From the sequence record PZ171032.1: 64,000 nucleotides of DNA; one strand, written 5' to 3'. The notes under the pieces are model-generated. The model saw only the letters and a list, made by a program, of their open reading frames with translations. It made no database searches and had not been told where the DNA came from. The translations under genes were made by a program, and so were the position numbers. The stretch is from a phage. Positions 2,705 to 25,028 of the stretch are shown piece after piece. Position 1 is the first letter of the stretch, and each line of letters begins with the position of its first letter.

Positions 2705-3046
2705 CTACTCAAGGTCTTCAGAGTCAAGCTCAAAAAGAATCAAACTGTGCATGCCTGCAGAGAGATCAACACACCCTGCAACAATAAGGGTCTGATAGTA
2801 AGGTTCAGCACCCTCGATGTCTTCGTTAAAATCCACAACAAGGTAGTCACCTTTGTTAAAGGTGTATTTGTCCGATGTGAATGCAAAACCTGCCCAGTCC
2901 CCTACTGCAGGATCTTTATCAGTCACCTTTGTTAGCAGTAGATCTTTTTCACGAGATCTTTTAGTAAAATCGTGAATCACAACATCCTTCTCTTCAGGAG
3001 TTGGATTGCCACACACGTAGTTAACGATATTTCTCCACAAACTCAT
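2705..3046 (-). CDS. hypothetical protein
   Basis: 113-aa ORF; its start overlaps the helicase stop. Confidence 0.55.
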   Translation of the reverse strand: MSLWRNIVNYVCGNPTPEEKDVVIHDFTKRSREKDLLLTKVTDKDPAVGDWAGFAFTSDKYTFNKGDYLVVDFNEDIEGAEPYYQTLIVAGCVDLSAGMHSLILFELDSEDLE

Positions 3047-4413
3047 ACGTCCCCCTCTTCGGCTCTGGTTTCAAAATCTTTCCTGACAATTTTGTCTAAG
3101 TCAGGGAATGTTGTATTGTAAAACTCTACGACTCGCGGGTCAACAATAATGTCAACTTCTCTTAGTGGACGCAACAAGTTTATTCCTTGTATTGTCTTAA
3201 CTCTGCTCAAAGCGACATACGTCATCCCAGGAGAGAAAGCTCCGTTCTTTCCAAGGTCTAGGTTGTAACAATCTAGCGTAAGTCCTTGACTTTTATGAGA
3301 TGTTACGGCGTACCCAGATTTCAGAGGAAGTTGCTTGTATGACCCAATCACTACCCTCTCTATAAACTTCTCCATCTTCCTTTCTGCAATGTTGTATCTC
3401 TGAGATGGCTTATACTCGTTATTCTCCCACAACCTCTGCTCTATGTCAACCTGTGTTCCATCTTCAAGCTCTACCACCACCGCCTTGTTCTTAAATTTAA
3501 CAATTGTGGCACGTGTTCCGTTAACATAATAAGGTACTTTGTGCGTCGGGTCAACATCGTTGGCGGTTATCATAACTTTCATGCCAATTTTCAACTTCAT
3601 CTCCTGCTCAACTGGCAGGGTGGAGGGAAACTTACCCTTCATTTCCCCAGTGTATACCTTCTCCGGGGCGTTGATGGCATCATAGAACCTTCTGTTCACT
3701 TCCTCTGCTTGTTTGTTGGTGGCGCAAATTGTGAGAGCGTCTGTTGGTACACCGCCTTTGTAACAGCGAGCATTAAGTTCTGCTACAACCTCTTTTATGC
3801 GACGACCCTCACGAACACAGTTGAGCATTGTGGCAAATCGAATAGACTCCTGTCGGAACTGATCTATTAGGGCTATGTTGTGGAGGTCAAGCTCTTTCCA
3901 AGATTCGGTATAGCAACACAGGTCTGTATGGTAGAAGTTGAAGTAGGCTTCCTTCTCCATAGAAGAGACAACAGGAGGTGCCTGGTAAAAATCGCCAAAC
4001 AATATGACCTGTATGCCTCCGAAAGGTTTGTCATTTTTTCGAAGGAAGCGAAGTTTCCTATCCATCTCTATAAACTTATCAGCACGGATCATAGAGATTT
4101 CATCGATAATCAGGATGGTAAATGCCTTGCTTTTCAAAGGCTTTGCTGTTTTTGCCCTTATTGCGGTCCAGTCTGACTCCATGCTCACACCTGCTGCAAG
4201 ATCGAAGGTTCGGTGTGCTGTTGCTCCATTAACGTTTAAAGCGGCTACCCCTGTCGGGGCAACCGTTATGCAAGAGTCTCCATACATTGACTGGATCATG
4301 TTGATGAGGTACGTCTTCCCACAACCTGCGGGTCCTGAAACGAAGACATTCTCACCGCTCATGATTGCAACGAGGGCAGCATCTGTGCCTACATCATACT
4401 GCCCTTTTTCCAT
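3043..4413 (-). CDS. Dda/PIF1/RecD-like superfamily 1 DNA helicase
   Basis: Walker A 'VSGPAGCGKTY', Walker B 'ILIIDEISMI', and C-terminal 'SHKSQGLT' and 'YVALSRVKT' motifs typical of RecD/Pif1/Dda helicases. Confidence 0.88.
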   Translation of the reverse strand: MEKGQYDVGTDAALVAIMSGENVFVSGPAGCGKTYLINMIQSMYGDSCITVAPTGVAALNVNGATAHRTFDLAAGVSMESDWTAIRAKTAKPLKSKAFTILIIDEISMIRADKFIEMDRKLRFLRKNDKPFGGIQVILFGDFYQAPPVVSSMEKEAYFNFYHTDLCCYTESWKELDLHNIALIDQFRQESIRFATMLNCVREGRRIKEVVAELNARCYKGGVPTDALTICATNKQAEEVNRRFYDAINAPEKVYTGEMKGKFPSTLPVEQEMKLKIGMKVMITANDVDPTHKVPYYVNGTRATIVKFKNKAVVVELEDGTQVDIEQRLWENNEYKPSQRYNIAERKMEKFIERVVIGSYKQLPLKSGYAVTSHKSQGLTLDCYNLDLGKNGAFSPGMTYVALSRVKTIQGINLLRPLREVDIIVDPRVVEFYNTTFPDLDKIVRKDFETRAEEGDV

Positions 4414-4778
4414 TACGCCTCCTCGTAAAGAATGTCGATAGTGTTACCGTCTCGGTCAACCACGTATTCAATCGGGTCTCCGTCCTTGCGTGCTTCCGGA
4501 GCTACCACAATCTCATAGCGGCATGCACGGCACTTAGCGCTATTGTGTTGGTATGGCACACTAACCACATCTGCAGGGTCAACCATGACAGTCATTACAG
4601 TGCCGTAGCTCTTCGCATACTCTTTGCTGGCGCAGTGTAAGCCATAGGAGCACGCAGCTTCAGGATCATCCTCTACAAAGTTACGAGGCATGGATACAAA
4701 AGCACCTTGGTATTGTGGGACTTTACCACTGTGCCAATCCACCCACTTGCTACCGTTAAACTGAACCCTTTGTAGCAA
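4413..4778 (-). CDS. hypothetical protein; may be the frameshifted continuation of the 4673..5617 gene
   Basis: 121-aa ORF with TTG start, overlapping the 3' end of the upstream ORF by about 105 nt in the -1 frame. Confidence 0.4.
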   Translation of the reverse strand: MLQRVQFNGSKWVDWHSGKVPQYQGAFVSMPRNFVEDDPEAACSYGLHCASKEYAKSYGTVMTVMVDPADVVSVPYQHNSAKCRACRYEIVVAPEARKDGDPIEYVVDRDGNTIDILYEEA

Positions 4779-5617
4779 ATGATTCGACCATCTTCTGCAA
4801 TCTGAATATCATTGGCCTGCATAAAATCGTAGAGCATGTTTACAGATTTTGCAGAAGGATTGCGTAGCAGGCGAACGAGGAATTTCACATAGCGGTCATC
4901 CAGCGTTCCGTCTGCATAATCTTTCTCAATTTTCTTTGCAATGGTGGATCGCATCTCTACACCGTAGTAGTAGAGCTTACCATCTTTCATGATCAGGTTG
5001 TCTGCAAGTGTGGTGAACTCATTCTTGCGTTCCAGCCAGACAAGGATTTCACCAATTGCCTCGTCATATTCCTGAACAGAGATATGGTCGAAGACTTTCT
5101 GGTAAACTTCCTCACTTTCGCTGCGGCGAATTTCAAAAATGCCTTCGTTGCAGGTGATCTGGAGGAGTTCCCCACAAATAACTACCAAAGGCTCGATGCT
5201 TCGAGTTTGTTGCTGAGACACACTGCTCACCACCTCCAGCACCGGATCTTTGACTTCTACTAAAGGTTCTTCTGACTTGATTGCCACCCCAGTGAACCCC
5301 ACACCGTGAACAACACACAGTGGGTATACCACGCCCCAACGTTTAACGGAACCTTCGCCTAAGTCTAAGATCATGGCGTACTTACCATTATCTTCCAATC
5401 CATAGCGGAATAAACGGGCCTCTTCGCGGGTTTCAAAATCCTCACGGGTGTAGCAGACGCTGTCACGGTCAGGATCGAACAACTCTGGGGCACCCACTGC
5501 CAGTGTCCAGGTTGTGTCGCCTTTCTCAATGGCACATGTGAAACCCTTCTTCTCAAGTTCTGCACGGCGGTCTCGTGCTTCTTTACGGGTTTTGAAATGT
5601 TCGTAGATGAAAATCAT
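4673..5617 (-). CDS. hypothetical protein
   Basis: 314-aa ORF; no recognised motif; the last ~35 codons overlap the 4413..4778 ORF. Confidence 0.55.
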   Translation of the reverse strand: MIFIYEHFKTRKEARDRRAELEKKGFTCAIEKGDTTWTLAVGAPELFDPDRDSVCYTREDFETREEARLFRYGLEDNGKYAMILDLGEGSVKRWGVVYPLCVVHGVGFTGVAIKSEEPLVEVKDPVLEVVSSVSQQQTRSIEPLVVICGELLQITCNEGIFEIRRSESEEVYQKVFDHISVQEYDEAIGEILVWLERKNEFTTLADNLIMKDGKLYYYGVEMRSTIAKKIEKDYADGTLDDRYVKFLVRLLRNPSAKSVNMLYDFMQANDIQIAEDGRIICYKGFSLTVASGWIGTVVKSHNTKVLLYPCLVTL

Positions 5618-5627
5618 CTTGGTCTCC

Positions 5628-7610
5628 TTATTTGATGTTATTCTTTGTATCGATCAGTTCACGGTATTCAATCATAGCAGGAGTGTCCCAATATTTCAAG
5701 CCCACATGCTTCAAAAGTGGATATTTCTTTTCCAATCTTGCAATATAGGCCTTTCCGCACTTAACCCGGTTGGCGATTAAGATTTTGGCACGATGATTTA
5801 GCTCACTGTGCTTCCACGCGGTGTTACCTTCCCACTTGTGGAAATGTGGCCGATAATTTCCAAAATCCTGCATGGGGATAATTTTCCCTAATTGTCTATA
5901 CAGGCTGTCATATGAAGTTTCATTTGCTGCGCGAGTCAGTAAGAATTTCCAGGCGTCCTCTTTCAACAAATGTTCCACATTTTTCTCTGTAACATACTGG
6001 CAATCAGGATCAGTCCAAAGCAGACGGGATTCTGATACCAGGTACAGGTCTTCCCCTTCAGGAATCTGGAGTGCCGCACGCACACGGTCATAATTTTGCT
6101 GGTAGATGTTACTCAGCTGTCCCAGCCAACAACTTCCACGTTGGATATCGCCCTCATAAGGAATGCAGTGCTTAATCTTCTTGAACTCTGCCTTAGTAAT
6201 ACGTTCACGACGGAAGTAACCATCCTTCTCAAGCTTTTTAACCCAATAACCTGGCTCGTAATGAGTTTTTGTTTCACCTTTCTTCGCAGGTCGGCGAGGG
6301 AGCTCTGATAACAATTTGACCGTATCTGCAAAGAACGGGTGGTGTGCCGCTTCTTTAAACTCTTCCACCAAATCCGTGTTACGGCAATAGAAAACGTTGC
6401 GTCCGGTGATCTCGCTTAAGTAGTTACACTTATTTCGGTTATATTTGCCGTCTCCGTCGTTAAACACTAAGTAGACCCCTCGTAAGAACTCCGACTTTCC
6501 GTAGCAGGCGTAACCTATGCGGCCTTTATTTAAGCCGCCAGCGAAGATCTCACAATCTCCCAAACTTCCTAGTCCTGTCTCTTCCCATCGGTCCCACATA
6601 AAATTCTTACCGAAGATGTGCCCGAACACTCCACTGTTCTTCATCATCTCACGTGCTTCTGAGGATGTTTTTGCTGTCTCCAATTCCGCAACAACTTCTG
6701 CCCCACGAAGACGGATACCCTCTTTGACAAAAGCCTCCAACCGCTCTTGGAATCCACCATCGTCGTGCCCCTCTATGGTCCATTCGCGCCCAGGGTTAAT
6801 ATTGCAATCCCCAATAGGGATCTCTACACAGATTGCAGGGTAGTCTGTCAATGTTTCCAGAAACTTAGAGCGGTAAGGTTGGTGTCCCATCACCACACGG
6901 CTCTCATCAGAGCTGGTATAACCTTTCAGGATAGTCATTTTCCAACCATCTTTCTCGTAGCGATACTGCGCCTCAACCTTGTCACCTTCCAGCATCTTAC
7001 TGGTCATAGGGTCGGTAACGGTAAACGGAAACTTTGCATAGCGTAGGCATGACGCAATAGCAGTGCGATATTTCAGAATATGCTCTTTCTTAACATGGAA
7101 CTGAACTTTTACCCCGTTGTGCTCTTCAGTCTTTCGCTCGCGGATCTTGGTAACGTTTGGGATACCCTGATCCAAGAACAATAGATATGTGCTTTCAACA
7201 CCATTGTGTACACTGATCACATCGAAAGTGTCCACCATGCTGAACGGGGCCTTTGAACCAACACCTTTATTACCCACCAGAGCGTTGCTGTTGCGCTTGG
7301 TTGACTCTCCGAGGTTCATGAAAGTGTTGCGGACCATCTCTTCTGACATGCCTAATCCAACGTCCTGCACAAAGAAGTATGGTTCAAGGTCTGTAGGAGA
7401 GTGAATGATGATCGGTACATCGCCCCGTCCAGACTCAACATGAGAGTCCACAGCATTGAAGATTGGTTCACGGCAGCTTGCCAGCACCTTATCTTCGTAA
7501 ATCCCTTTAATGATTAGCCCAAAAGTCTCTTTGTTCAGAGAAATTGAGCCCCTGGTGACCTCCATATTTCCAGTTAGCACTGCTTTAGTTTCATTACTGT
7601 TTACAATCAT
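5628..7610 (-). CDS. GHKL-superfamily ATPase, Hsp90-like N-terminal domain, with a large uncharacterised C-terminal region
   Basis: N-box 'EPIFNAVDS', G1 box 'QDVGLGMS', Hsp90-like 'NLGESTKRNS' and G2 box 'GNKGVGSKAPF' within the first ~130 aa; the remaining ~500 aa match nothing I recognise. Confidence 0.6.
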   Translation of the reverse strand: MIVNSNETKAVLTGNMEVTRGSISLNKETFGLIIKGIYEDKVLASCREPIFNAVDSHVESGRGDVPIIIHSPTDLEPYFFVQDVGLGMSEEMVRNTFMNLGESTKRNSNALVGNKGVGSKAPFSMVDTFDVISVHNGVESTYLLFLDQGIPNVTKIRERKTEEHNGVKVQFHVKKEHILKYRTAIASCLRYAKFPFTVTDPMTSKMLEGDKVEAQYRYEKDGWKMTILKGYTSSDESRVVMGHQPYRSKFLETLTDYPAICVEIPIGDCNINPGREWTIEGHDDGGFQERLEAFVKEGIRLRGAEVVAELETAKTSSEAREMMKNSGVFGHIFGKNFMWDRWEETGLGSLGDCEIFAGGLNKGRIGYACYGKSEFLRGVYLVFNDGDGKYNRNKCNYLSEITGRNVFYCRNTDLVEEFKEAAHHPFFADTVKLLSELPRRPAKKGETKTHYEPGYWVKKLEKDGYFRRERITKAEFKKIKHCIPYEGDIQRGSCWLGQLSNIYQQNYDRVRAALQIPEGEDLYLVSESRLLWTDPDCQYVTEKNVEHLLKEDAWKFLLTRAANETSYDSLYRQLGKIIPMQDFGNYRPHFHKWEGNTAWKHSELNHRAKILIANRVKCGKAYIARLEKKYPLLKHVGLKYWDTPAMIEYRELIDTKNNIK

Positions 7611-8107
7611 TTATTGCGCTCCTTGTAGTAGATATGACTCCCGAATTGAGCTGTCCTCTGCATCTTTTTTGCCCATTTCGGTCGTACTTTGGTCGTATGG
7701 TAGTGTGTTGCTCCACCTGTTATATCCATAGCCATGTATGCAACATGGTTGTTATTATAGACCTTTAGAAGCATCTTTGCAAGACTTTTAGCGTGATCCC
7801 ATGAATCTTTTTCTGTCACCTTAAAAGTTTTGCCGTAGTTTGTCCACGAAAACTGATTAGGTTGGTAGACAATCTTTCTTATAGTGTCCGGGTATTTGGG
7901 ATGAGATTTCCTGTTTAGGGTGGCAAACCCAGATGCCAGCATACCCATCGTGCCATCCCCTCTAGCTTCCCTGTAGATATTGCATGCTAGAATGTTTTCC
8001 TTAGTATCTGATGGCTTGCAAGTATGGTATACTTTTTGTTTTGGTGCTGCAACAACAGGCAGCGATAAAAATGCGCTCAAAATAATAGCAAAGATCTTAA
8101 TTTTCAC
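7607..8107 (-). CDS. secreted cell-wall hydrolase, SleB-type (Hydrolase_2 family); candidate endolysin
   Basis: N-terminal signal peptide 'MKIKIFAIILSAFLSLPVVAAP'; 'NIYREARGD...LNRKSHPKYPDTIRKIVYQPNQFSW' matches the SleB consensus (IYxEARGE...LNR...P.FP.TI..V..Q..QF). Confidence 0.7.
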   Translation of the reverse strand: MKIKIFAIILSAFLSLPVVAAPKQKVYHTCKPSDTKENILACNIYREARGDGTMGMLASGFATLNRKSHPKYPDTIRKIVYQPNQFSWTNYGKTFKVTEKDSWDHAKSLAKMLLKVYNNNHVAYMAMDITGGATHYHTTKVRPKWAKKMQRTAQFGSHIYYKERNK

Positions 8108-8127: not shown

Positions 8128-8143
8128 CCCCGCCGAAGCGGGG
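8128..8143 (-). terminator. rho-independent terminator after the 8157..8537 gene
   Basis: ccccgc-cgaa-gcgggg hairpin followed on the minus strand by ATTTTCTATTT; the same hairpin sequence recurs at 34562 and in near-identical form at 40373. Confidence 0.6.
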
Positions 8144-8546: not shown

Positions 8547-9731
8547 TTAAGCTTTAGCCAAAATGGCGCTAAACTCTTCACCAAACTCTTTTACAATCTT
8601 CATCAGGTTTGGGTATGCTTTGATCAACTGAGCAACAATCTTGTCACGCCCTTTACCGATAAGCAAGGCATTTCCTAAGGCGTTAGGTTTCATCATCGCC
8701 ATAAAGACTGAGAATACAAAATCTCGGTTCTCGTCCTTGAAATTTTCCCAAAGGAAATCGAGGAAGTTTGCCACACAGCTAACAAGATCTTCGTCGGAGA
8801 TACTTGCATTTTCCATCATATTGCGAATAGCGATACAACCTTCAGATCCAAGAATCCACAAAATGTCTGGCTGCTTAGGACCTACGTATTCTTTGCAGCC
8901 ACCTGCCATAATCCGACCGATTTCCGGTAAATTACGTTTCTTGGTGTGGTAAGTCCAGATCTCTACCGCTGCAGTGTGACCAATAGCACCTTGTAGAAGA
9001 ACACGGGCCATAGCGTCAGAAATAATACCGCTGTCAAAATCGTGCAAGATGTCAGATGCAGCAACCCAAGATCGCGGTGTGGCAAAAGATGGACAATTAA
9101 TCTCAGCCATAGCCTCATAATTATCAATAGCTGAGGGAACTCTTTTCAAATATCCAATTACAGAGGAATGCACCCCATTAAGGAATGCGTAGTCCTCAAT
9201 AAACACCTCTGCATTGCTTGTAACCTCTACAATGATAAAACGGTTAGCCAGAGGGGCTTCGAGCGCCGAAAGAACCGCACCATCTGTAGAACGGTTACCC
9301 GCAGCCACAAAAACAGAACCCTTAGGGAATGCATAGGTGCCGCACTTGTGGTCAAGCATAATTTGCATTGCAACCTTTTGCAGGTAGTTATCTGCATGAG
9401 TGAGCTCATCCAGAAAGATAATTCCGCTCCAGTCAGGATCCGCAGGCCAAAATTCTGGAATTGCAAACACTGTACGTGTAGTTCCATCCGCTTCTACAGG
9501 GATAGGTAGCCCAGATAAGTCGGCAGGATCTTTATCTGACAGTCGCACGTCAACAAGGTTGTCATCTCGCTCACCGAACATATTATCAGCGATCTGCTTC
9601 ATCACCTGGCTTTTACCCACACCCATTGGTCCCAAAATTAGGACAGATCGGCTATGACGTTGGGCAAACTGAATAATAGCTGGCAACTCACGGACAGTGA
9701 TTTGACCACTTTCGAATACGTTTCTTGACAT
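8547..9731 (-). CDS. AAA+ ATPase, MoxR/CbbQ-like
   Basis: Walker A 'LGPMGVGKSQ', Walker B 'IIFLDELTHAD'; size and layout typical of MoxR-type ATPases that partner with VWA proteins. Confidence 0.78.
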   Translation of the reverse strand: MSRNVFESGQITVRELPAIIQFAQRHSRSVLILGPMGVGKSQVMKQIADNMFGERDDNLVDVRLSDKDPADLSGLPIPVEADGTTRTVFAIPEFWPADPDWSGIIFLDELTHADNYLQKVAMQIMLDHKCGTYAFPKGSVFVAAGNRSTDGAVLSALEAPLANRFIIVEVTSNAEVFIEDYAFLNGVHSSVIGYLKRVPSAIDNYEAMAEINCPSFATPRSWVAASDILHDFDSGIISDAMARVLLQGAIGHTAAVEIWTYHTKKRNLPEIGRIMAGGCKEYVGPKQPDILWILGSEGCIAIRNMMENASISDEDLVSCVANFLDFLWENFKDENRDFVFSVFMAMMKPNALGNALLIGKGRDKIVAQLIKAYPNLMKIVKEFGEEFSAILAKA

Positions 9732-10000
9732 TAGTAAAAGTCCTCTACTTGTGTGTAAGTGTTTTCAAAGTTTTCCAAAACAGATATCACATCGAATCTG
9801 TCAATATCATACGTGACTCTCCAGTTGTACGCAACCCTTTCTGCTGTTGCCTCTTCTGGCGCTAGTCGTCTGCTGGCATAAAAGAGTGTTGGAGTACACT
9901 TTCTTGCTTGCCCTCTAACTTTCCCATAATAATATCTGTGAATATCTTTGTCAAAATTTAACTCTTTTTCTGCACGAAGTTCATATTGCTGGTATAACAT
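9731..10000 (-). CDS. hypothetical protein
   Basis: 89-aa ORF; stop overlaps the MoxR start (translational coupling). Confidence 0.5.
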   Translation of the reverse strand: MLYQQYELRAEKELNFDKDIHRYYYGKVRGQARKCTPTLFYASRRLAPEEATAERVAYNWRVTYDIDRFDVISVLENFENTYTQVEDFY

Positions 10001-13361: not shown

Positions 13362-14843
13362 ATGGCCCCTTCTGGAGTTTTAATGGATAGCAGAAGTTCA
13401 GAAATCATTGCCTCGCAGAAAGATGATGCCCTGAGAATGTTGCAGGCTGCACGTATGTATCTCCTTGAAAAGCTGCCGTTTTATGGCACACTACTGTCAG
13501 GGTTGCAGTTCGTAGAAAACCACACATGGTGCTCCACCATGGCAACCGACCATAAACGCATCTATTACAGTCCTGAGTTCATTATGGGATTGGCTGATGA
13601 GCGCAAGGCTATTCTTAAGGCTTCTCTAACTGACGAGCAGTTTGAGATGGCTGAAGTTTTCTATTCCCCAAAATCTGTGAAAGAGGTGGCCTTCCTTCTG
13701 TCACATGAGGTGGGGCATATTATCTGTGATCATCTAGTCCGTGGTAAAAGCTTTGAGCCGGAACTGTTCAATATTGCTTGTGATCACGTTATCAACACAG
13801 GCCTTGTGGTTGACTTTAGCAAACCTCCTTGTGTTTTCTTCCCGAAGGGGAAAAGCACTACGTTCATGAAAGGTAAGCCTTTTGGCTTCTTAGCCAGCTG
13901 CTACTGTGACATGAGGTTTCATGGATGGATTGCTGAGAACGTTTATGCAGTTCTTGATAAGCAAAGAGATCAGAATAACGGTAAAAGTAAGAACGGTAAA
14001 GGTGAGAACTCTCAAAGTGATAAGCGACAAACCGATGATCACATGAGTGGGAACGGTGGCACCAGTGATAATCTTGGAAAGGCTATGGGGTATGATCAGC
14101 CACAACCTGTAATCAGCCAATCTGATAAAGATCAGGCCATGCAGGACTCTGGTGATATGCTGGAGGCAGCAATGCAAGCTTCCGGAGGTCGTTGCCCTGA
14201 GGCGGTGCGTGAGTTTGTCAAGAACAGGGGTAAGCCTGTAATCAACTATATAGACATCATTAAGCAACGCATGTTGTCTAAACGAAAGGCTGAACTGACC
14301 TACAGAAAACCTGGTCGCCGATCTGGGTCTTTGACCAGCACAATGCGAAAAGTTGGGGCTATAAACAAGAACCAGCACGTTATTGTTCCCGGTCGTAATC
14401 CGGAAAACACCATAGATATTGTTGTAGCTTTAGACGTTTCTGGCTCGATCTCTCAAAGAACTTTAAAGAAAATGTTCAATGAAATCACCGGATTGTGCAA
14501 TCTGTATAAAGAGTTTAAGGTTACAATGTTCTGTTGGTCAACTGAGGTTGGAGAGGTTAAAGTATACACTCGCGGTAACATAGATGAGATGATCAACTAT
14601 GAGGTCCACTCAACATGGGGCACAACAGCTGCTTGCGTGTTCGAGTATCTAGATGCCAACATACCAAATGCAAAAGATGTCATCGTATTGACCGACCTAT
14701 ACTTTGAGCATAACTTTGAACAAAAGGCTGTTGACAACAAGTGGAAAAAGTACGATACTTTATGGGTTCTCACCGAAGGGTATAATAAAAATTATATCCC
14801 TAGCTTTGGGAAAACTGTGGAATTAATCGAGTACGCTAAGTAA
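13362..14843 (+). CDS. metallopeptidase-like (HExxH) plus von Willebrand factor A domain protein (DUF2201-type layout)
   Basis: 'LLSHEVGHIICDH' zinc-binding-like motif in the N-terminal half; C-terminal VWA MIDAS motif 'VVALDVSGSIS'; this layout commonly partners with MoxR ATPases. Confidence 0.72.
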   Translation: MAPSGVLMDSRSSEIIASQKDDALRMLQAARMYLLEKLPFYGTLLSGLQFVENHTWCSTMATDHKRIYYSPEFIMGLADERKAILKASLTDEQFEMAEVFYSPKSVKEVAFLLSHEVGHIICDHLVRGKSFEPELFNIACDHVINTGLVVDFSKPPCVFFPKGKSTTFMKGKPFGFLASCYCDMRFHGWIAENVYAVLDKQRDQNNGKSKNGKGENSQSDKRQTDDHMSGNGGTSDNLGKAMGYDQPQPVISQSDKDQAMQDSGDMLEAAMQASGGRCPEAVREFVKNRGKPVINYIDIIKQRMLSKRKAELTYRKPGRRSGSLTSTMRKVGAINKNQHVIVPGRNPENTIDIVVALDVSGSISQRTLKKMFNEITGLCNLYKEFKVTMFCWSTEVGEVKVYTRGNIDEMINYEVHSTWGTTAACVFEYLDANIPNAKDVIVLTDLYFEHNFEQKAVDNKWKKYDTLWVLTEGYNKNYIPSFGKTVELIEYAK

Positions 14844-19391: not shown

Positions 19392-22300
19392 TTAACGAGA
19401 AAAGGTTGCGTAGGCTTCTAGACGATACTGCTGGTCACCAGGGAACATAACACCTATAGAGGCTGTCCCTAGAATCCTGCCTTCCTTTCCAGACTCCATT
19501 CTGAACCCTACCCATCCTGAACTCCTTGCAGCCTCGATGTTGTCGCTATACCCGAAAGTGGCAAGATCGTCAACACCAGCCCCAAACAGCAACTGAAGCT
19601 GACTTCTCGGAAGCCCTATAATTTCAGGAATATACGCACCAAAGTACACCATCTGCCCTACCTTAGGACCGCTGCCGTACTCCATCGGTTTGCTTGTAGA
19701 GAAAGTCTTCATACCAGAAGTACCTGCCGGATTAGGGTATGCCCCGTTTGTTGCTGTACCTATCCACATTCTCCACTGTGGTGCCATCTGTTTGACAGTA
19801 AAAGATGTTGAAGACGTTTTGCGCCCTGCATCATCTGTAACTACAAACTTTATGGTGACATTCCCAGTAGCTTTAAATGTTACCAGTCCTGTGGTGGCAT
19901 CCACTGTTGCAATGTTGGTATTACTACTTTCCCAAGTCTTTCTAATCCCGGATACGTTGGAAGGGGTAATAGAAGGTTCCTGCATCTGCAGTTTACCGCC
20001 CACAATCCCTATGCCGTTGCCAGGATTATACAGTGCACCAACCTCGTCTATAATGTTCCCTGCTTTGAGACTATACTTCCTTGAGAAATTGTAGGTTCCG
20101 TTATAAGTGTGTGTCCCTGAGAAGGTGACATCTGCCTTCCCGTAAGAGATGCAAACCAACGCATACTTCCTGTCAGGCAACGTTTCTCCAGTCTCTGGGT
20201 GAGTTTTACCTACCTGGAACACACTCGGGTCAGTAGAGTCGTGACTATCACTAACGGAGCTTGGACCGCCCATCAACTGTGACAAACAATTCCTTACCCA
20301 TGTCCAGTTATTATCGCTGGAGAAGTCCACAGTCAAATCAAACACAACCCACTCATTTGGCTTCCACACAGGTGTTGTAATGGACTTGCCTACACCACCT
20401 CCTTGGAGTGTTGCCGACTGTTCAGTGATCAGGGCCGCATAGGCCAGAGTTCCTAAACTCAGAGTCTGGCTTGCTGTCCTCACTACCTTAGAATCAGCAT
20501 CTGTGAAGTTGTTGATGATTTGGAATGTGCCATAAGTGTTTTTACAGGTAATTCTGGCGTTCAGTGTGTCAATCTTCCTCACATCTGCCATAGCAGTGTT
20601 AGACACAGAGAAGTCAGAAGCTTTAGCTGAGTTTGCCGCAACAGCAGGATCAACGTTAAGAGTTGCGTTGAACTGACAAGCAGGAGTAACCAGTAGCTTG
20701 TTATCACCTATTTGCTTCCATGAAACACTTTGAACAGGGAGATTCCATTTAATACCTGAGAAAACCTTAGCAACCCTTGGCCCCAAAGCTCCAGTCCTGT
20801 TGTCTTTACAGCACATAGACATGGTGATCGTTGACGGAGTGGCCTGACCAAATAATTGCTGTGCTTTTGCAGAGGACATAGTGTAGAAATTGTCCTTAAC
20901 AAACTCATCAGCAGCTAAAGATCCATCAGCTCTCCACCACTGAACCTGATACCCTGTTTTGTCCCAACCACCGACCTGCTTCAAGTCCTCCCAGGAGATT
21001 TCCAGATCCCCGGTGGTAGGATTGATTGCAGCAGTTCCTGGTGTTCCAGATGACCATATTGGAATATCGAACCACGCTGGTTTAACCGACTGCACTGCGC
21101 TGGGACCTATTGCGGCAGCAAGTTGCTGGCCCATCAATACGCGAGCATCTTTCACCAGACCCCACTCAATCATAGACCCAGAGTAACCTTCTTTCTTGTA
21201 GGCTGAGGATCCGTTCAAATGGATGAGTCGGCTTGTGCCAAAGTTATGTGCTCCACCACCGTTGTCGTCTGCAAAATTGGTTATGATTCTGTCCCTGATA
21301 TTTTTCCATGCCCTGCCTCCAATCTCGTAGTCATGGTCATAACATCTTTGCAGTGTTGTCCAGCAAATGATCGCCATCCTTCTACCATTGCTGAAGCCAA
21401 AGGCCTGATCGTTAAGCTCTCTCCACAAGTAGCAGTTGGTGGTCCACATGGCCCTATGAATGTTAAACCAGTTTATAGATTTGGCTGAGTTGTTCCACTG
21501 AGTCCCAGGTAATTCAGGCCATACTGCATTAACCAGCATGTCTTCTGTTCCTGCATCAACCAGGAACCCTCTCACCTTCTTACCCATGCCTACCCTATCT
21601 TTTGCAATCCAACTGCCAAACAATCTCAGTTTTGGACCGTAGACAACATCTTCCGGATGCTCAAAAGAAATATATTTTAGGTATATTGTAGGGTCACCAT
21701 AGGTGCCATCACAAACAGCTTTGTGCATGTTCTCACCAAGGTCTAGACGAAGTCCTGTTACAACTCTAGACGTGTCGGTGAATTTGTCTGTTAAATCAAA
21801 CTCATACCACCACCAACCTGCACCCAACAATACTTTCTTACAACGCTGTGCATCTGTATCAGATATTCTCTTATCGCCTGCAAAAGGTGAGTCAGCAAAC
21901 TGATAGTGCAGAGCAACCTCAAAAGGATGTGTGGATGTCCCGTTTTCTGCAAGAACTTGTTTACCTATCAGGTCGCACTTAATGATCATCACAACACGTT
22001 TGTATCCGTTTGTTACCGGAATTTGCATGGACATGGATGTCCCATCCATGTTTGATCTCAGTGCAGTCATGATGATATAAGGGTCAACGGCATTGCCCAA
22101 AGTCTCAGGACCGGGGATTATCTTATACTTCTTGACCTGCCCCATGATGTAGTCACTTGCGTAAGTTGCCTCATTCAAGCAAGATCCTCCACCAGGTAAC
22201 TCACCAGGTCCCCAGAAAAATGCGCCGTAACAGTTGTAGAACCACTTGTTAGGATCGTATTTATTCTTGAAGGTCTGAACCTCGTTGGCCTGTTTTGTCA

Positions 22301-25028
22301 AGAAAACCTGCGTGTCTGTGAAGATTGCAGGGTTTACTCTCGCCTGTCTTGGAGGGTAACCTGTAGTTTGGTTAAACCACAAATTACAAGAGTAATCCCT
22401 CATATAGTCATAATCAGAGTATTTGTTTACATCTTCGTTCCAACACATGTTTAGGTTGGTACCGCCCATGCATACAATATATTCTGCGACATACTTATCA
22501 CTTCTGGTAGGAATACCTATGAACCATCTGTTAACAGGCTCATCCCAAGCTGTGCGCTCATCTTTAACGCAGATAGCAATCCAGTCATGTGTTCCTGTTT
22601 TCTTGCACACATCTCGCTTCATACCATAGTAGAACTCTTTAGTATTCGGCTCAGGTGCATTTATCAGGTAACTCCATGCCTGATTTGCATAAGTTCCATT
22701 GGTGCGTGGATCATGATCAAAGGCATACATGATGATCCTTTCCCCACCAAGATGTTCGCCAAGAGTAACTTTGACATTCACATCGCCGTAACCATTGCGA
22801 ACAACATCCATATTGTCAATAGAGATGCCTCTGGGAGTGTAGGCAATCTTCAGCGAGTTATCCTCACTAGTGCCACCAAGTGTAATCCCTATGTTGTTTG
22901 TTGTCCCGTCGGCATATCTTACTGTGGCTTCCCAGCGTATTCCGAAATATCCTGCATCATGGCTAACAATTTTCAGTGTACGAGCACCAGAGTTAGGTTT
23001 TCCAGGATCAGGCCAAGGATTTGGATGTTCATGGACAGTCAACGATGTCCCGTTTTGCTCGTTGACCTGCAACATTTTACCGCCTCTGCCGTTAGGGTTG
23101 AACTCCCACAAGGCTTGTGTTTTCACAATATTGTCATACGTGGTACGTCTCTGATCGTAGATCTCCTGAGTCACATCGTAGGTTACAGACCCGGCATCCA
23201 TTCTATGGAGTCGTACTATATACGATGTATCGCCTTCTACAGCAGGTTGAGCTGCGTTAAGCCCGAAGTATACAGTATCGTTGACATGGAACTGTTTGTT
23301 TCTACCGACAGTATGCCACTTGCCGTTGGACGGGTACGCTGGGACGATAGTGTTCCAGTTCAAAGTCCTTGTTGTGTGGGTTCTGCCTGTGCCATGTTTG
23401 TCATGATAGGTTATTTTTACAGAGTACAGTCCACGTCTGTTAACATTTCTGTTATATTGGGTAACAACAACTTCGTTGGCCCCGCCGTGGTTCCAGTTGG
23501 TGGAGAATTGGTAATTTGCATCTGTAACAACCGTGCCTGCAGCATTTACCAGTTCAATCTTGTCAATAATGAACGTAGCCCCCTCTGGCTGAGGCTTCAA
23601 TTTCATCTTGACCGTGTCACCAATGTAAATATTGCTAACGCTGCTAACACCGTTAACTTCGAAAATATAATCAACACCCCAACTGTCTACTGGGACATTT
23701 TTATACCAATTCTCAGGAACCTCTGTGAACCCCTGGCTATTAAGTCTGCCGCCAAACAGGTTGTTAGATCCTGCAAAACTTCCCCTTGGGATGCCTGACC
23801 ACCAAAGTTTACCATTAACAACAGTAAAGGTTCCTAAGAAACCTTCTCTGTGGATGCCTTGGAAATAAACACTCTCTGTCCAGCTAACTGGCAGGCGTTG
23901 CTCAACATATTTAGCTGTAGCAAGAGCTTGATAGTGGATAAAATTAGCCCTAGGGCTATTGTTTGCAGATTGTGCACCAATATCATTACACAAGTTGCGA
24001 GAGAATCCACGATACTGTTTAGTGCCATTATTGAAGAAAATGCCACTTGTGCCATATCCACGAGCCATTATCACCTCATGGGTGTAGGTGATATTTAAGG
24101 AACGCCATGTGTCATCTCCCCAGACGTCTTGCCCGTAGAATACGTTAACAAGCTGCTGGTCATTGGGTTTGTGCATCCTCTGTGTGGCAATTATTGCCCC
24201 GTTAGGGCCACACATAAACCCTTTCCACTCCTCATCTGCAGGAATGCCCCTCAAATCGTTACGAGTAATCTGCACAGGGGGCCAAACAAGGTCGTTTCTA
24301 CTGTTATTTCTCAGAAAGTCGTATCCAGCAATCCAGAAACCCCTAGGACCACCGAAAATAACAGAGTTGTCATGCACCTCACAGTTGATGCTTGGGTTTT
24401 TCCAAGGGCCTGTTTCAGGATTTTCCGATGTCTCACCAATCTTTACAGGGGTTGCATGCTGATTTTTATCTACATGCAAAGATCCGTAGGTGTTGTTACC
24501 AGATCCATACAGGTTAAGTATGCCAGTACCTTCTGCCTCTGCAATAACCCAGACAGTGTTGTTAATACCGCCCATCACCTCAATAAGGCGTTCTGGGTGG
24601 GTGTCAAGGTGCAATCCTTTAACAATCTGCTCTGGGAGTGGTGTCCACTCGTTTACGCAAACATCATTACCGCCTGCCGCAGTGGATCCGATAAGACCTG
24701 CAGTGCAGCCGATGTAGAAAAACTGGTTATCAAAAGTCCGGATCACAAACGCGCGGTCTGCTCTCCACACATGATCAACATTCCAGGCTGTTTCGCTCGG
24801 ATAGTTTATAGGGCTACGATCCCCAGTGCGGCACTCTCCGAACTTGTTATAGCCAGTAATATTAAGCTGACCATCATCAAAAAGTATAGCTAAGCTATTT
24901 ACATAGGATACTGTGTTGCTTGTACCATCACTGTTGTCTATTGGGTATGACAGAACAGCAAGTTCCTTAATTCCACCCCTCTTATCGAGGAAATGACGAC
25001 CAAGTTTTAGCAAAGGGATTGGAAGCAT
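19392..25028 (-). CDS. giant virion-associated protein (1878 aa), probable tail fiber/tailspike with RCC1-like N-terminal repeats
   Basis: Largest ORF in the window, at the distal end of the fiber cluster; N-terminus has RCC1-like repeat signatures ('ILFDDGQLNITGYNKFGE', 'VWVIAEAEGTGILNLYGSGNNTYG'); Trp/Tyr/Asn-rich. Confidence 0.6.
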   Translation of the reverse strand: MLPIPLLKLGRHFLDKRGGIKELAVLSYPIDNSDGTSNTVSYVNSLAILFDDGQLNITGYNKFGECRTGDRSPINYPSETAWNVDHVWRADRAFVIRTFDNQFFYIGCTAGLIGSTAAGGNDVCVNEWTPLPEQIVKGLHLDTHPERLIEVMGGINNTVWVIAEAEGTGILNLYGSGNNTYGSLHVDKNQHATPVKIGETSENPETGPWKNPSINCEVHDNSVIFGGPRGFWIAGYDFLRNNSRNDLVWPPVQITRNDLRGIPADEEWKGFMCGPNGAIIATQRMHKPNDQQLVNVFYGQDVWGDDTWRSLNITYTHEVIMARGYGTSGIFFNNGTKQYRGFSRNLCNDIGAQSANNSPRANFIHYQALATAKYVEQRLPVSWTESVYFQGIHREGFLGTFTVVNGKLWWSGIPRGSFAGSNNLFGGRLNSQGFTEVPENWYKNVPVDSWGVDYIFEVNGVSSVSNIYIGDTVKMKLKPQPEGATFIIDKIELVNAAGTVVTDANYQFSTNWNHGGANEVVVTQYNRNVNRRGLYSVKITYHDKHGTGRTHTTRTLNWNTIVPAYPSNGKWHTVGRNKQFHVNDTVYFGLNAAQPAVEGDTSYIVRLHRMDAGSVTYDVTQEIYDQRRTTYDNIVKTQALWEFNPNGRGGKMLQVNEQNGTSLTVHEHPNPWPDPGKPNSGARTLKIVSHDAGYFGIRWEATVRYADGTTNNIGITLGGTSEDNSLKIAYTPRGISIDNMDVVRNGYGDVNVKVTLGEHLGGERIIMYAFDHDPRTNGTYANQAWSYLINAPEPNTKEFYYGMKRDVCKKTGTHDWIAICVKDERTAWDEPVNRWFIGIPTRSDKYVAEYIVCMGGTNLNMCWNEDVNKYSDYDYMRDYSCNLWFNQTTGYPPRQARVNPAIFTDTQVFLTKQANEVQTFKNKYDPNKWFYNCYGAFFWGPGELPGGGSCLNEATYASDYIMGQVKKYKIIPGPETLGNAVDPYIIMTALRSNMDGTSMSMQIPVTNGYKRVVMIIKCDLIGKQVLAENGTSTHPFEVALHYQFADSPFAGDKRISDTDAQRCKKVLLGAGWWWYEFDLTDKFTDTSRVVTGLRLDLGENMHKAVCDGTYGDPTIYLKYISFEHPEDVVYGPKLRLFGSWIAKDRVGMGKKVRGFLVDAGTEDMLVNAVWPELPGTQWNNSAKSINWFNIHRAMWTTNCYLWRELNDQAFGFSNGRRMAIICWTTLQRCYDHDYEIGGRAWKNIRDRIITNFADDNGGGAHNFGTSRLIHLNGSSAYKKEGYSGSMIEWGLVKDARVLMGQQLAAAIGPSAVQSVKPAWFDIPIWSSGTPGTAAINPTTGDLEISWEDLKQVGGWDKTGYQVQWWRADGSLAADEFVKDNFYTMSSAKAQQLFGQATPSTITMSMCCKDNRTGALGPRVAKVFSGIKWNLPVQSVSWKQIGDNKLLVTPACQFNATLNVDPAVAANSAKASDFSVSNTAMADVRKIDTLNARITCKNTYGTFQIINNFTDADSKVVRTASQTLSLGTLAYAALITEQSATLQGGGVGKSITTPVWKPNEWVVFDLTVDFSSDNNWTWVRNCLSQLMGGPSSVSDSHDSTDPSVFQVGKTHPETGETLPDRKYALVCISYGKADVTFSGTHTYNGTYNFSRKYSLKAGNIIDEVGALYNPGNGIGIVGGKLQMQEPSITPSNVSGIRKTWESSNTNIATVDATTGLVTFKATGNVTIKFVVTDDAGRKTSSTSFTVKQMAPQWRMWIGTATNGAYPNPAGTSGMKTFSTSKPMEYGSGPKVGQMVYFGAYIPEIIGLPRSQLQLLFGAGVDDLATFGYSDNIEAARSSGWVGFRMESGKEGRILGTASIGVMFPGDQQYRLEAYATFSR

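Follow-up and report, generated by a model that had tools for sequence, protein, structure and literature searches.

The rIIA gene and its assignment

A stretch of 64,000 nucleotides of phage DNA (sequence record PZ171032.1), here called the window, contains a gene that is very probably the Vequintavirus (rV5-type) ortholog of rIIA of phage T4 and the first gene of the rIIA-rIIB counter-defense pair. An initial annotation, made from the sequence alone, had placed a single open reading frame (ORF) at this locus; it is indeed one ORF with an ATG start, it lies on the minus strand, and its product has 660 residues. An AAGGAG ribosome-binding site is located 8 nucleotides 5' of the ATG. The features of the gene, of its partner rIIB, and of the neighboring genes are compiled in Table 1.

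Table 1. Positions of rIIA, rIIB, and neighboring features within the 64,000-nucleotide window (E, E-value)
Feature	Position	Strand	Remarks
rIIA coding sequence	5628-7610	minus	660 residues including ATG; stop TAA 5628-5630; ORF list and translation
GHKL (Bergerat-fold) ATPase domain, residues 1 to ~195	7026-7610	minus	
Motif I, E48-x3-N52-x2-D55 (catalytic Glu, Mg-binding Asn)	7446-7469	minus	sequence
Motif II, D83-V-G85-L-G87 (adenine-binding Asp)	7350-7364	minus	sequence
ATP-lid segment, NLGESTK (residues 99-105) through motif III GNKGVGSK (residues 113-120)	7251-7316	minus	
Second domain (transducer / Hsp90-M-like), residues ~196-285	6756-7025	minus	
R275-E276 codons, IGDCxxxPGRE loop	6783-6788	minus	invariant pair
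Lineage-variable C-terminal region, residues 286-660	5631-6755	minus	helical segment, alpha/beta domain, helical end
rIIB, split into ORFs 4673-5617 and 4413-4778	4413-5617	minus	both pieces match RIIB PHROGs
1-nucleotide deletion site in rIIB, GGG versus GGGG in relatives	4766-4768	minus	alignment with isim and WM
Dda/PIF1-like helicase, directly after rIIB	3043-4413	minus	Pfam PIF1, E = 1.1e-32; phrog_325
N6/N4 DNA methyltransferase	1318-2643	minus	Pfam N6_N4_Mtase, E = 1.6e-42; just downstream of the rII-helicase block
SleB/CwlJ-like cell-wall hydrolase	7607-8107	minus	Pfam Hydrolase_2, E = 4e-19; first gene of the block
Terminator-like hairpin CCCCGCTTCGGCGGGG, then ATTTTCT	8128-8143	minus	consensus match only
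MoxR-annotated AAA+ ATPase	8547-9731	minus	phrog_1297; Pfam AAA matches weak only
DUF2201_N metallopeptidase-like and VWA-like (DUF2201) protein	13362-14843	plus	

The assignment is based on sequence profiles, on predicted structures, and on the annotation of close relatives. The profile phrog_612, named "RIIA lysis inhibitor", covers residues 1-658 of the window protein (profile positions 1-724 of 725) with an E-value of 4.6e-125, and T4 rIIA, taken from AF158101, matches the same profile end to end (E = 9e-250). In a direct BLASTP comparison the window protein and the T4 protein, which is longer (725 residues), share 28% identity over the first ~198 residues (E = 3e-21), residues 1-190 of the former being paired with residues 1-196 of the latter, and the Pfam domain PF13589 was found in both. 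A Foldseek search of the BFVD, a check that the initial annotation had proposed, gave full-length matches to viral RIIA models. Nearly all of the top 50 matches are named RIIA or RIIA-like, many alignments span more than 700 columns, and the full-length alignments between the window model and RIIA models have E-values down to 4e-31 and template modeling (TM) scores of 0.4-0.54. The whole-model matches include RIIA of the phages KVP40, 44RR2.8t, and pf16 as well as of Streptomyces and Rhodococcus phages.

The window belongs to a Vequintavirus, an rV5-like E. coli myovirus, and it shares 98.2% identity with phage isim in this region. The gene is carried at 90-98% nucleotide identity by 120 records, the majority of which label it rIIA, and this label is present in isim, WM, BP9, Murica, and others. 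RIIA of phage EdH4 (EdH4_00063; Vequintavirus murica) is identical to the window protein at 650 of the 660 residues and has the same flanking genes. On a wider scale, 2643 of 50,697 phage records contain a relative of rIIA according to tblastn, and among the matches listed almost all are annotated as rIIA. The gene is already known and routinely annotated in a well-sampled phage genus. The initial annotation had presented the product as an unusual protein of unknown kind; it is instead rIIA, a member of the same PHROG as T4 rIIA, with rIIB downstream, and it belongs to a well-characterized family, as is evident from phrog_612 and from the rIIA label in close relatives.

Some resources are silent on this family. 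Neither rIIA nor rIIB is named in the Pfam and NCBIfam copies that were searched, and PF26926 (Phage_T4_rIIB) was encountered only in precomputed annotations. There is no solved RIIA structure. A comparison of T4 rIIA with the PDB sequences yielded marginal Hsp90 matches only, and a phmmer search with the single window protein against the same sequences yielded only marginal matches (E of about 0.1), so that a family profile was needed. A phmmer match of residues 397-450 to topoisomerase 3-beta was judged to be a chance match. In a homolog search that started from T4 rIIA, all matches listed were near-identical T-even sequences, from which no diverse profile could be built for the T4 side.

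Domain organization of RIIA

Judged by its motifs, the N-terminal part of RIIA is a genuine GHKL/Bergerat ATPase domain with a complete motif set, and the Hsp90-like GHKL ATPase fold had been assigned correctly from the start. All motifs of the Bergerat fold are present and show little or no variation among 23 homologs. Residues R47, E48, N52, A53, and D55 at motif I, residues D83, G85, and G87 of motif II, and residues S103, T104, K105, G113, G116, G118, S119, and K120 of the lid segment are invariant in these homologs. The lid element of the Hsp90 type that had been noticed in the initial annotation is found as NLGESTK; it is shared with the Hsp90 family (HtpG, TRAP1, GRP94), and the lid segment aligns with the Hsp90/TRAP1 lid when the family profile is compared with the PDB sequences. 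The predicted local distance difference test (pLDDT) value of the model falls below 50 at residues 101-109, which is expected because the lid is mobile. The first ~25 residues of the model are also of low confidence; in related ATPases the corresponding N-terminal segment is a strap that contributes to dimerization.

The ATPase domain is followed by a second domain, as in GHL ATPases, in which this is the transducer domain with a ribosomal S5 domain 2-like fold. Matches were obtained to TRAP1 (18.0), ParE 43K (16.8), the T6 topoisomerase II ATPase (16.2), MORC2 (16.2), the MutL N-terminal domain (15.5), and SMCHD1 (15.4). Therefore, residues ~196-285 are a transducer domain typical of the GHL/MORC ATPases (Hsp90, MutL, GyrB, MORC). 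In contrast to GyrB/ParE, T6 topoisomerase II, MutL, MORC2/3, and SMCHD1, the window RIIA is devoid of a Toprim, endonuclease, CW, or hinge domain.

The second domain contains the loop IPIGDCNINPGRE, which terminates with R275-E276. No variation of this pair was seen in the 23 homologs or in 26 diverse rIIA homologs including that of T4 (MGSLDIAPSRE), so that a PSRE in T4 corresponds to the PGRE in the window, and many of the tblastn alignments to distant RIIA proteins stop exactly at residue 276. When a profile of the region was aligned with the middle domain of E. coli HtpG using hhalign, R275-E276 was placed on R336-E337 (LPLNVSRE). This is a weak match with P = 0.008, and one of 300 shuffled HtpG targets reached its score. 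The SRE loop of HtpG is the one in which Hsp90 proteins have their catalytic Arg (R380 in yeast Hsp82). In the window RIIA, the candidate for the basic residue with which the second domain of such ATPases reaches the gamma-phosphate is R275, an Arg followed by Glu like that of Hsp90, whereas GyrB and MutL have a Lys at this position. The open-access literature text that was searched mentions neither a second domain nor an invariant Arg of RIIA, and a literature search for rIIA together with Hsp90 or MORC turned up unrelated Fc-receptor papers.

About 500 residues beyond the ATPase motifs had initially been described as matching nothing. This description did not hold, since phrog_612 and the Foldseek matches to RIIA extend over the full length and residues ~196-285 are the transducer domain. 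Residues 286-660 have a confident predicted fold that resembles other RIIA models, and no solved structure matched them. The helical end carries the motifs LSELPRRP and KYPLL, and short motifs are collinear with T4 (PRRPAKK in the window and PRPKAA in T4, KYPLL and KYPEL, respectively). With hhalign, a profile of the rV5-type C-terminal region gave only a weak match to the C-terminal part of T4 rIIA, near the Arg loop (E = 0.012). When 1.84 billion representatives were searched with the C-terminal profile (HMMER), no T4-type proteins were reached, and the rV5-type region was restricted to about 20 sequence clusters. The alignment of residues 286-660 with the C-terminal half of HtpG (hhalign) scored the same as shuffles, and no Hsp90 C-terminal dimerization domain was found. 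The full-length Foldseek matches and the collinear motifs fit the description of rIIA as an N-terminal GHKL domain joined to a C-terminal domain that varies greatly (Iyer et al.).

These ~500 residues had also been called rich in the amino acids Cys, His, and Trp. For these amino acids the enrichment is modest (2.2, 2.8, and 2.4%, compared to 1.35, 1.65, and 1.77% in the long ORFs of the window), and a metal-site pattern is absent. A C-terminal Cys/His metal site was considered and rejected, as conservation within the close group is limited to C269 and neither a CxxC nor a HxxH pattern is present.

The rIIB partner and the gene neighborhood

The start codon of rIIB is an ATG at position 5617, 10 nucleotides past the rIIA stop codon, and is preceded by a GGAG site. 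As in T4, rIIB is therefore the next gene after rIIA. In isim, WM, and EdH4 it is one ORF for 401 residues, whereas the window version has 1205 instead of 1206 nucleotides, and its frame shifts at codon ~284, which lies within the conserved core of RIIB. The deletion is present in none of 114 related phage records, which were compared over an 81-nucleotide stretch without the extra base; all of them keep the G and an undivided ORF for 401 residues. Either it is a sequencing or assembly error, or it represents a genuine rIIB frameshift mutant. Because rIIB is frameshifted, the RII system is possibly inactive here or the sequence is wrong. A real deletion would make the isolate a natural rII mutant, for which sensitivity to RexAB is expected. 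Programmed frameshifting was also considered and was rejected, because the AAA-GGG does not have the register that a canonical slippery heptamer requires and the 114 relatives are unshifted. For T4 rIIA, reversible homopolymer frameshifts have been described as contingency loci, in runs of at least 6 bases.

The order rIIA-then-rIIB is kept in two more distant relatives, L004 and L005, at 40% and 21% identity, respectively, and there the partner carries PF26926 (Phage_T4_rIIB). Natural fusions of RIIA and RIIB exist in RB43 (BFVD Q56C47, 1049 residues) and in phiR1-RT (HE956709.1 g007). The profile PHROG 609, which is named "RIIB" and has 1055 positions, matches RIIA with its N-terminus and RIIB with its C-terminus, and therefore its label can mislead the annotation of GHKL domains. 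The kept gene order and the natural fusions argue for a physical partnership of RIIA and RIIB.

The RIIB protein of the rV5 type differs from T4 RIIB, which is shorter (312 residues) and does not have the N-terminal extension of the former. This extension contains weak SPOR-like repeats at residues 8-42 and ~60-97, for which the SPOR matches are below threshold (E of about 1e-3, 19-20 bits versus a cut-off of 21). The SPOR-like part lies in the region 5500-5617 of the window, and the observation also concerns 6014-7219 of the sequence L001. In one relative, ECML-10, the protein is labeled "SPOR domain-containing protein". A moderately hydrophobic stretch is located near residue 95 of RIIB (19-residue hydropathy of 1.69).

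Upstream of rIIA, the stop codon of the SleB/CwlJ-like hydrolase gene overlaps the rIIA start codon (ATGA). The order hydrolase-rIIA-rIIB-helicase recurs in L004. A putative terminator is annotated in EdH4 at the place equivalent to the hairpin that precedes this block. Past the methyltransferase gene downstream of the helicase, phage isim has another methylase gene and a gene for a primase-helicase. The methylases, the helicase, and the primase-helicase are all nearby, and therefore the rII pair sits in a region of replication and modification genes.

In the initial annotation the GHKL gene had been placed next to a MoxR ATPase gene. Its actual neighbors are the hydrolase gene upstream and rIIB downstream, and the MoxR-like gene is found two genes upstream, beyond the hairpin. 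The idea that the GHKL gene, the MoxR-like AAA+ ATPase gene, and the VWA/metallopeptidase gene constitute one system could draw on the fact that all three are within ~9 kb in Vequintavirus genomes. However, the terminator-like hairpin stands between the MoxR-like block and the hydrolase-rIIA block, and the VWA-like gene is encoded by the opposite strand. The co-occurrence check that had been proposed likewise failed to connect them, because the relatives at 40% and 21% identity keep rIIB, while no MoxR or VWA gene is present within 6 kb of rIIA in either of them. A common system is thus very improbable. The MoxR-like and VWA-like genes look like a phage MoxR/VWA-type pair that has, as far as tested, no tie to rIIA. 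An ORF for 89 residues (9731-10000, minus strand) lies beside the MoxR-like gene and is named "ATPase" in relatives too; the VWA-like gene is ~3.6 kb away.

Further along the minus strand, a very long ORF for 1878 residues (19392-25028) encodes an Ig-like domain protein in EdH4, and 25077-53653 is occupied by the multi-gene tail-fiber and baseplate cluster that is characteristic of the Vequintavirinae. The region 19392-53653 served only for bringing the window into register with the EdH4 genome, at an offset of ~25.77 kb. Sixteen unannotated records of "Campylobacter phage" (MG065635-MG065690; A147, A142, C7, C12, and others) are 95-96% identical to E. coli Vequintavirus at this locus. The host given for them, Campylobacter jejuni, is unexpected for rV5-like coliphages and may be the result of mislabeling or contamination.

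Role in counter-defense and proposed mechanism

The function of RIIA and RIIB has been addressed by CRISPRi-ART knock-down in the phages T4, MM02, EdH4, SUSP1, and N4 (Adler et al., Nat Microbiol 2025; PMC11879866). Knock-down of either had no effect on Rex-free E. coli, and it lowered the efficiency of plating on cells that express lambda RexAB (PMC11879866). Transposon data for T4 agree in that rIIA is non-essential without RexAB. It has also been described that RIIB triggers a CARD/gasdermin defense. By analogy to the published result for the EdH4 ortholog, the pair of the window would be dispensable on ordinary E. coli and needed for efficient plating on RexAB-containing cells, and like its T4 counterpart it would counteract RexAB. 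The role of an anti-defense effector, one of the options offered in the initial annotation, is therefore supported by the RexAB-dependent loss of plating efficiency after knock-down of an ortholog that is nearly identical to the window protein.

Another of these options was a chaperone for virion assembly. A Hsp90-like chaperone for the folding or assembly of virion proteins would be in accord with the best sequence and structure matches, which are Hsp90-family proteins, and some relatives carry the automated annotation "Molecular chaperone, HSP90 family". However, knock-down of EdH4 RIIA leaves the infection of Rex-free E. coli unimpaired, and T4 rIIA is non-essential in the absence of RexAB as well. 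The knock-down being harmless without Rex, an essential role as virion-assembly chaperone is ruled out. Furthermore, the gene is found among early replication and modification genes and not among structural genes, and its C-terminal region has no sequence similarity to the C-terminal half of Hsp90. Altogether, a virion chaperone is a highly improbable explanation, and the role of RIIA differs from that of the Hsp90 family, counter-defense versus general chaperoning.

The names under which the family is filed imply yet another function, namely that RIIA is a lysis inhibitor or a membrane-integrity protein that acts directly on the timing of lysis. The PHROG category is "lysis", the names "RIIA lysis inhibitor" and "membrane integrity protector" are in use, T4 rII mutants lyse rapidly on some strains, and the gene upstream of rIIA encodes a cell-wall hydrolase and is translationally coupled to it. 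However, in the T4 record the rapid lysis is put down to the influence of specific prophages, no membrane segment is predicted for RIIA (maximum 19-residue hydropathy of 0.83), and the conditional requirement is tied to RexAB. A direct action on lysis is thus improbable.

For the counter-defense function, which we favor, the domain organization suggests a mechanism. RIIA may be a dimeric, ATP-gated clamp like the ATPases Hsp90, MutL, and MORC. Binding of ATP would close the lid (residues ~99-120) and draw the N-terminal domains together, R275 of the second domain would complete the active site, and hydrolysis would reset the clamp. The variable C-terminal region would hold the dimer and would bind RIIB and/or the target. 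The complex of RIIA and RIIB would then stop Rex-type abortive infection from firing, either by masking the trigger or by acting on the components at the membrane. The clamp may act on DNA-protein intermediates by which RexA is triggered, on RIIB as its client, or at the membrane. A target-facing role of the C-terminal region would explain its fast evolution next to a conserved ATPase core.

In the main rival to this explanation, a variant of it which differs in the target, RIIA is a DNA-manipulating clamp of the GHL/MORC type that acts on phage DNA or on replication-recombination intermediates, and protection against Rex is an indirect effect of hiding the DNA-protein trigger. The gene is located between genes for a Dda/PIF1 helicase, methylases, and a primase-helicase, one relative is labeled "putative DNA-binding rIIA protein", Iyer et al. 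consider RIIB to be a transcription factor, and the C-terminal part has a net charge of +9. However, neither a Toprim nor a nuclease nor a recognizable DNA-binding domain was found in RIIA, the T4 record and other annotations call the T4 rII proteins membrane-associated, and the top structural and sequence matches are of the Hsp90 type and not of the topoisomerase type. The DNA clamp is therefore a possibility of low probability.

A more far-reaching form of the clamp mechanism can be put forward only tentatively, namely that the RIIA family might represent highly derived phage Hsp90s. They would have an N-domain of the Hsp90 type and a second domain of the M type, the invariant Arg would be equivalent to the catalytic Arg of the SRE loop, the M2 and C-terminal dimerization parts would perhaps have been remodeled, and the protein would operate as an ATP-driven clamp on RIIB or on a Rex component or trigger. 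The alignment of the Arg loop with that of HtpG is a hint in this direction.

Several points weigh against the interpretations given above. With its frameshift in rIIB, this isolate may lack a functional rII pair. Past residue ~300, no sequence similarity of the C-terminal region to T4 rIIA was detectable with BLAST, HMMER, or hhalign, and with C-terminal regions so dissimilar in sequence the specificity could differ from that of T4 RIIA. The correspondence of the Arg loop to that of Hsp90 is suggestive, as it is derived from a weak profile alignment (P of about 0.008), and a HMMER search with a profile of the middle region against the PDB sequences retrieved no Hsp90, only chance matches (prefoldin). 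To our knowledge, ATP hydrolysis, dimerization, or RIIB binding has not been demonstrated biochemically for any RIIA. The biochemical mechanism of RIIA and RIIB is called unclear in the literature.

The genes rIIA and rIIB are among the oldest in molecular genetics, and the interest of the family exceeds that of this particular locus. The combination of a conserved core with a fast-evolving C-terminus suggests where the specificity for the target lies. If the two-domain ATPase with its invariant Arg is a true clamp like Hsp90 or MutL, the involvement of ATP turnover in counter-defense can be tested by point mutation. If it is true that RIIA is a Hsp90-type clamp, the old rII problem would acquire a concrete catalytic mechanism that is testable by mutation.

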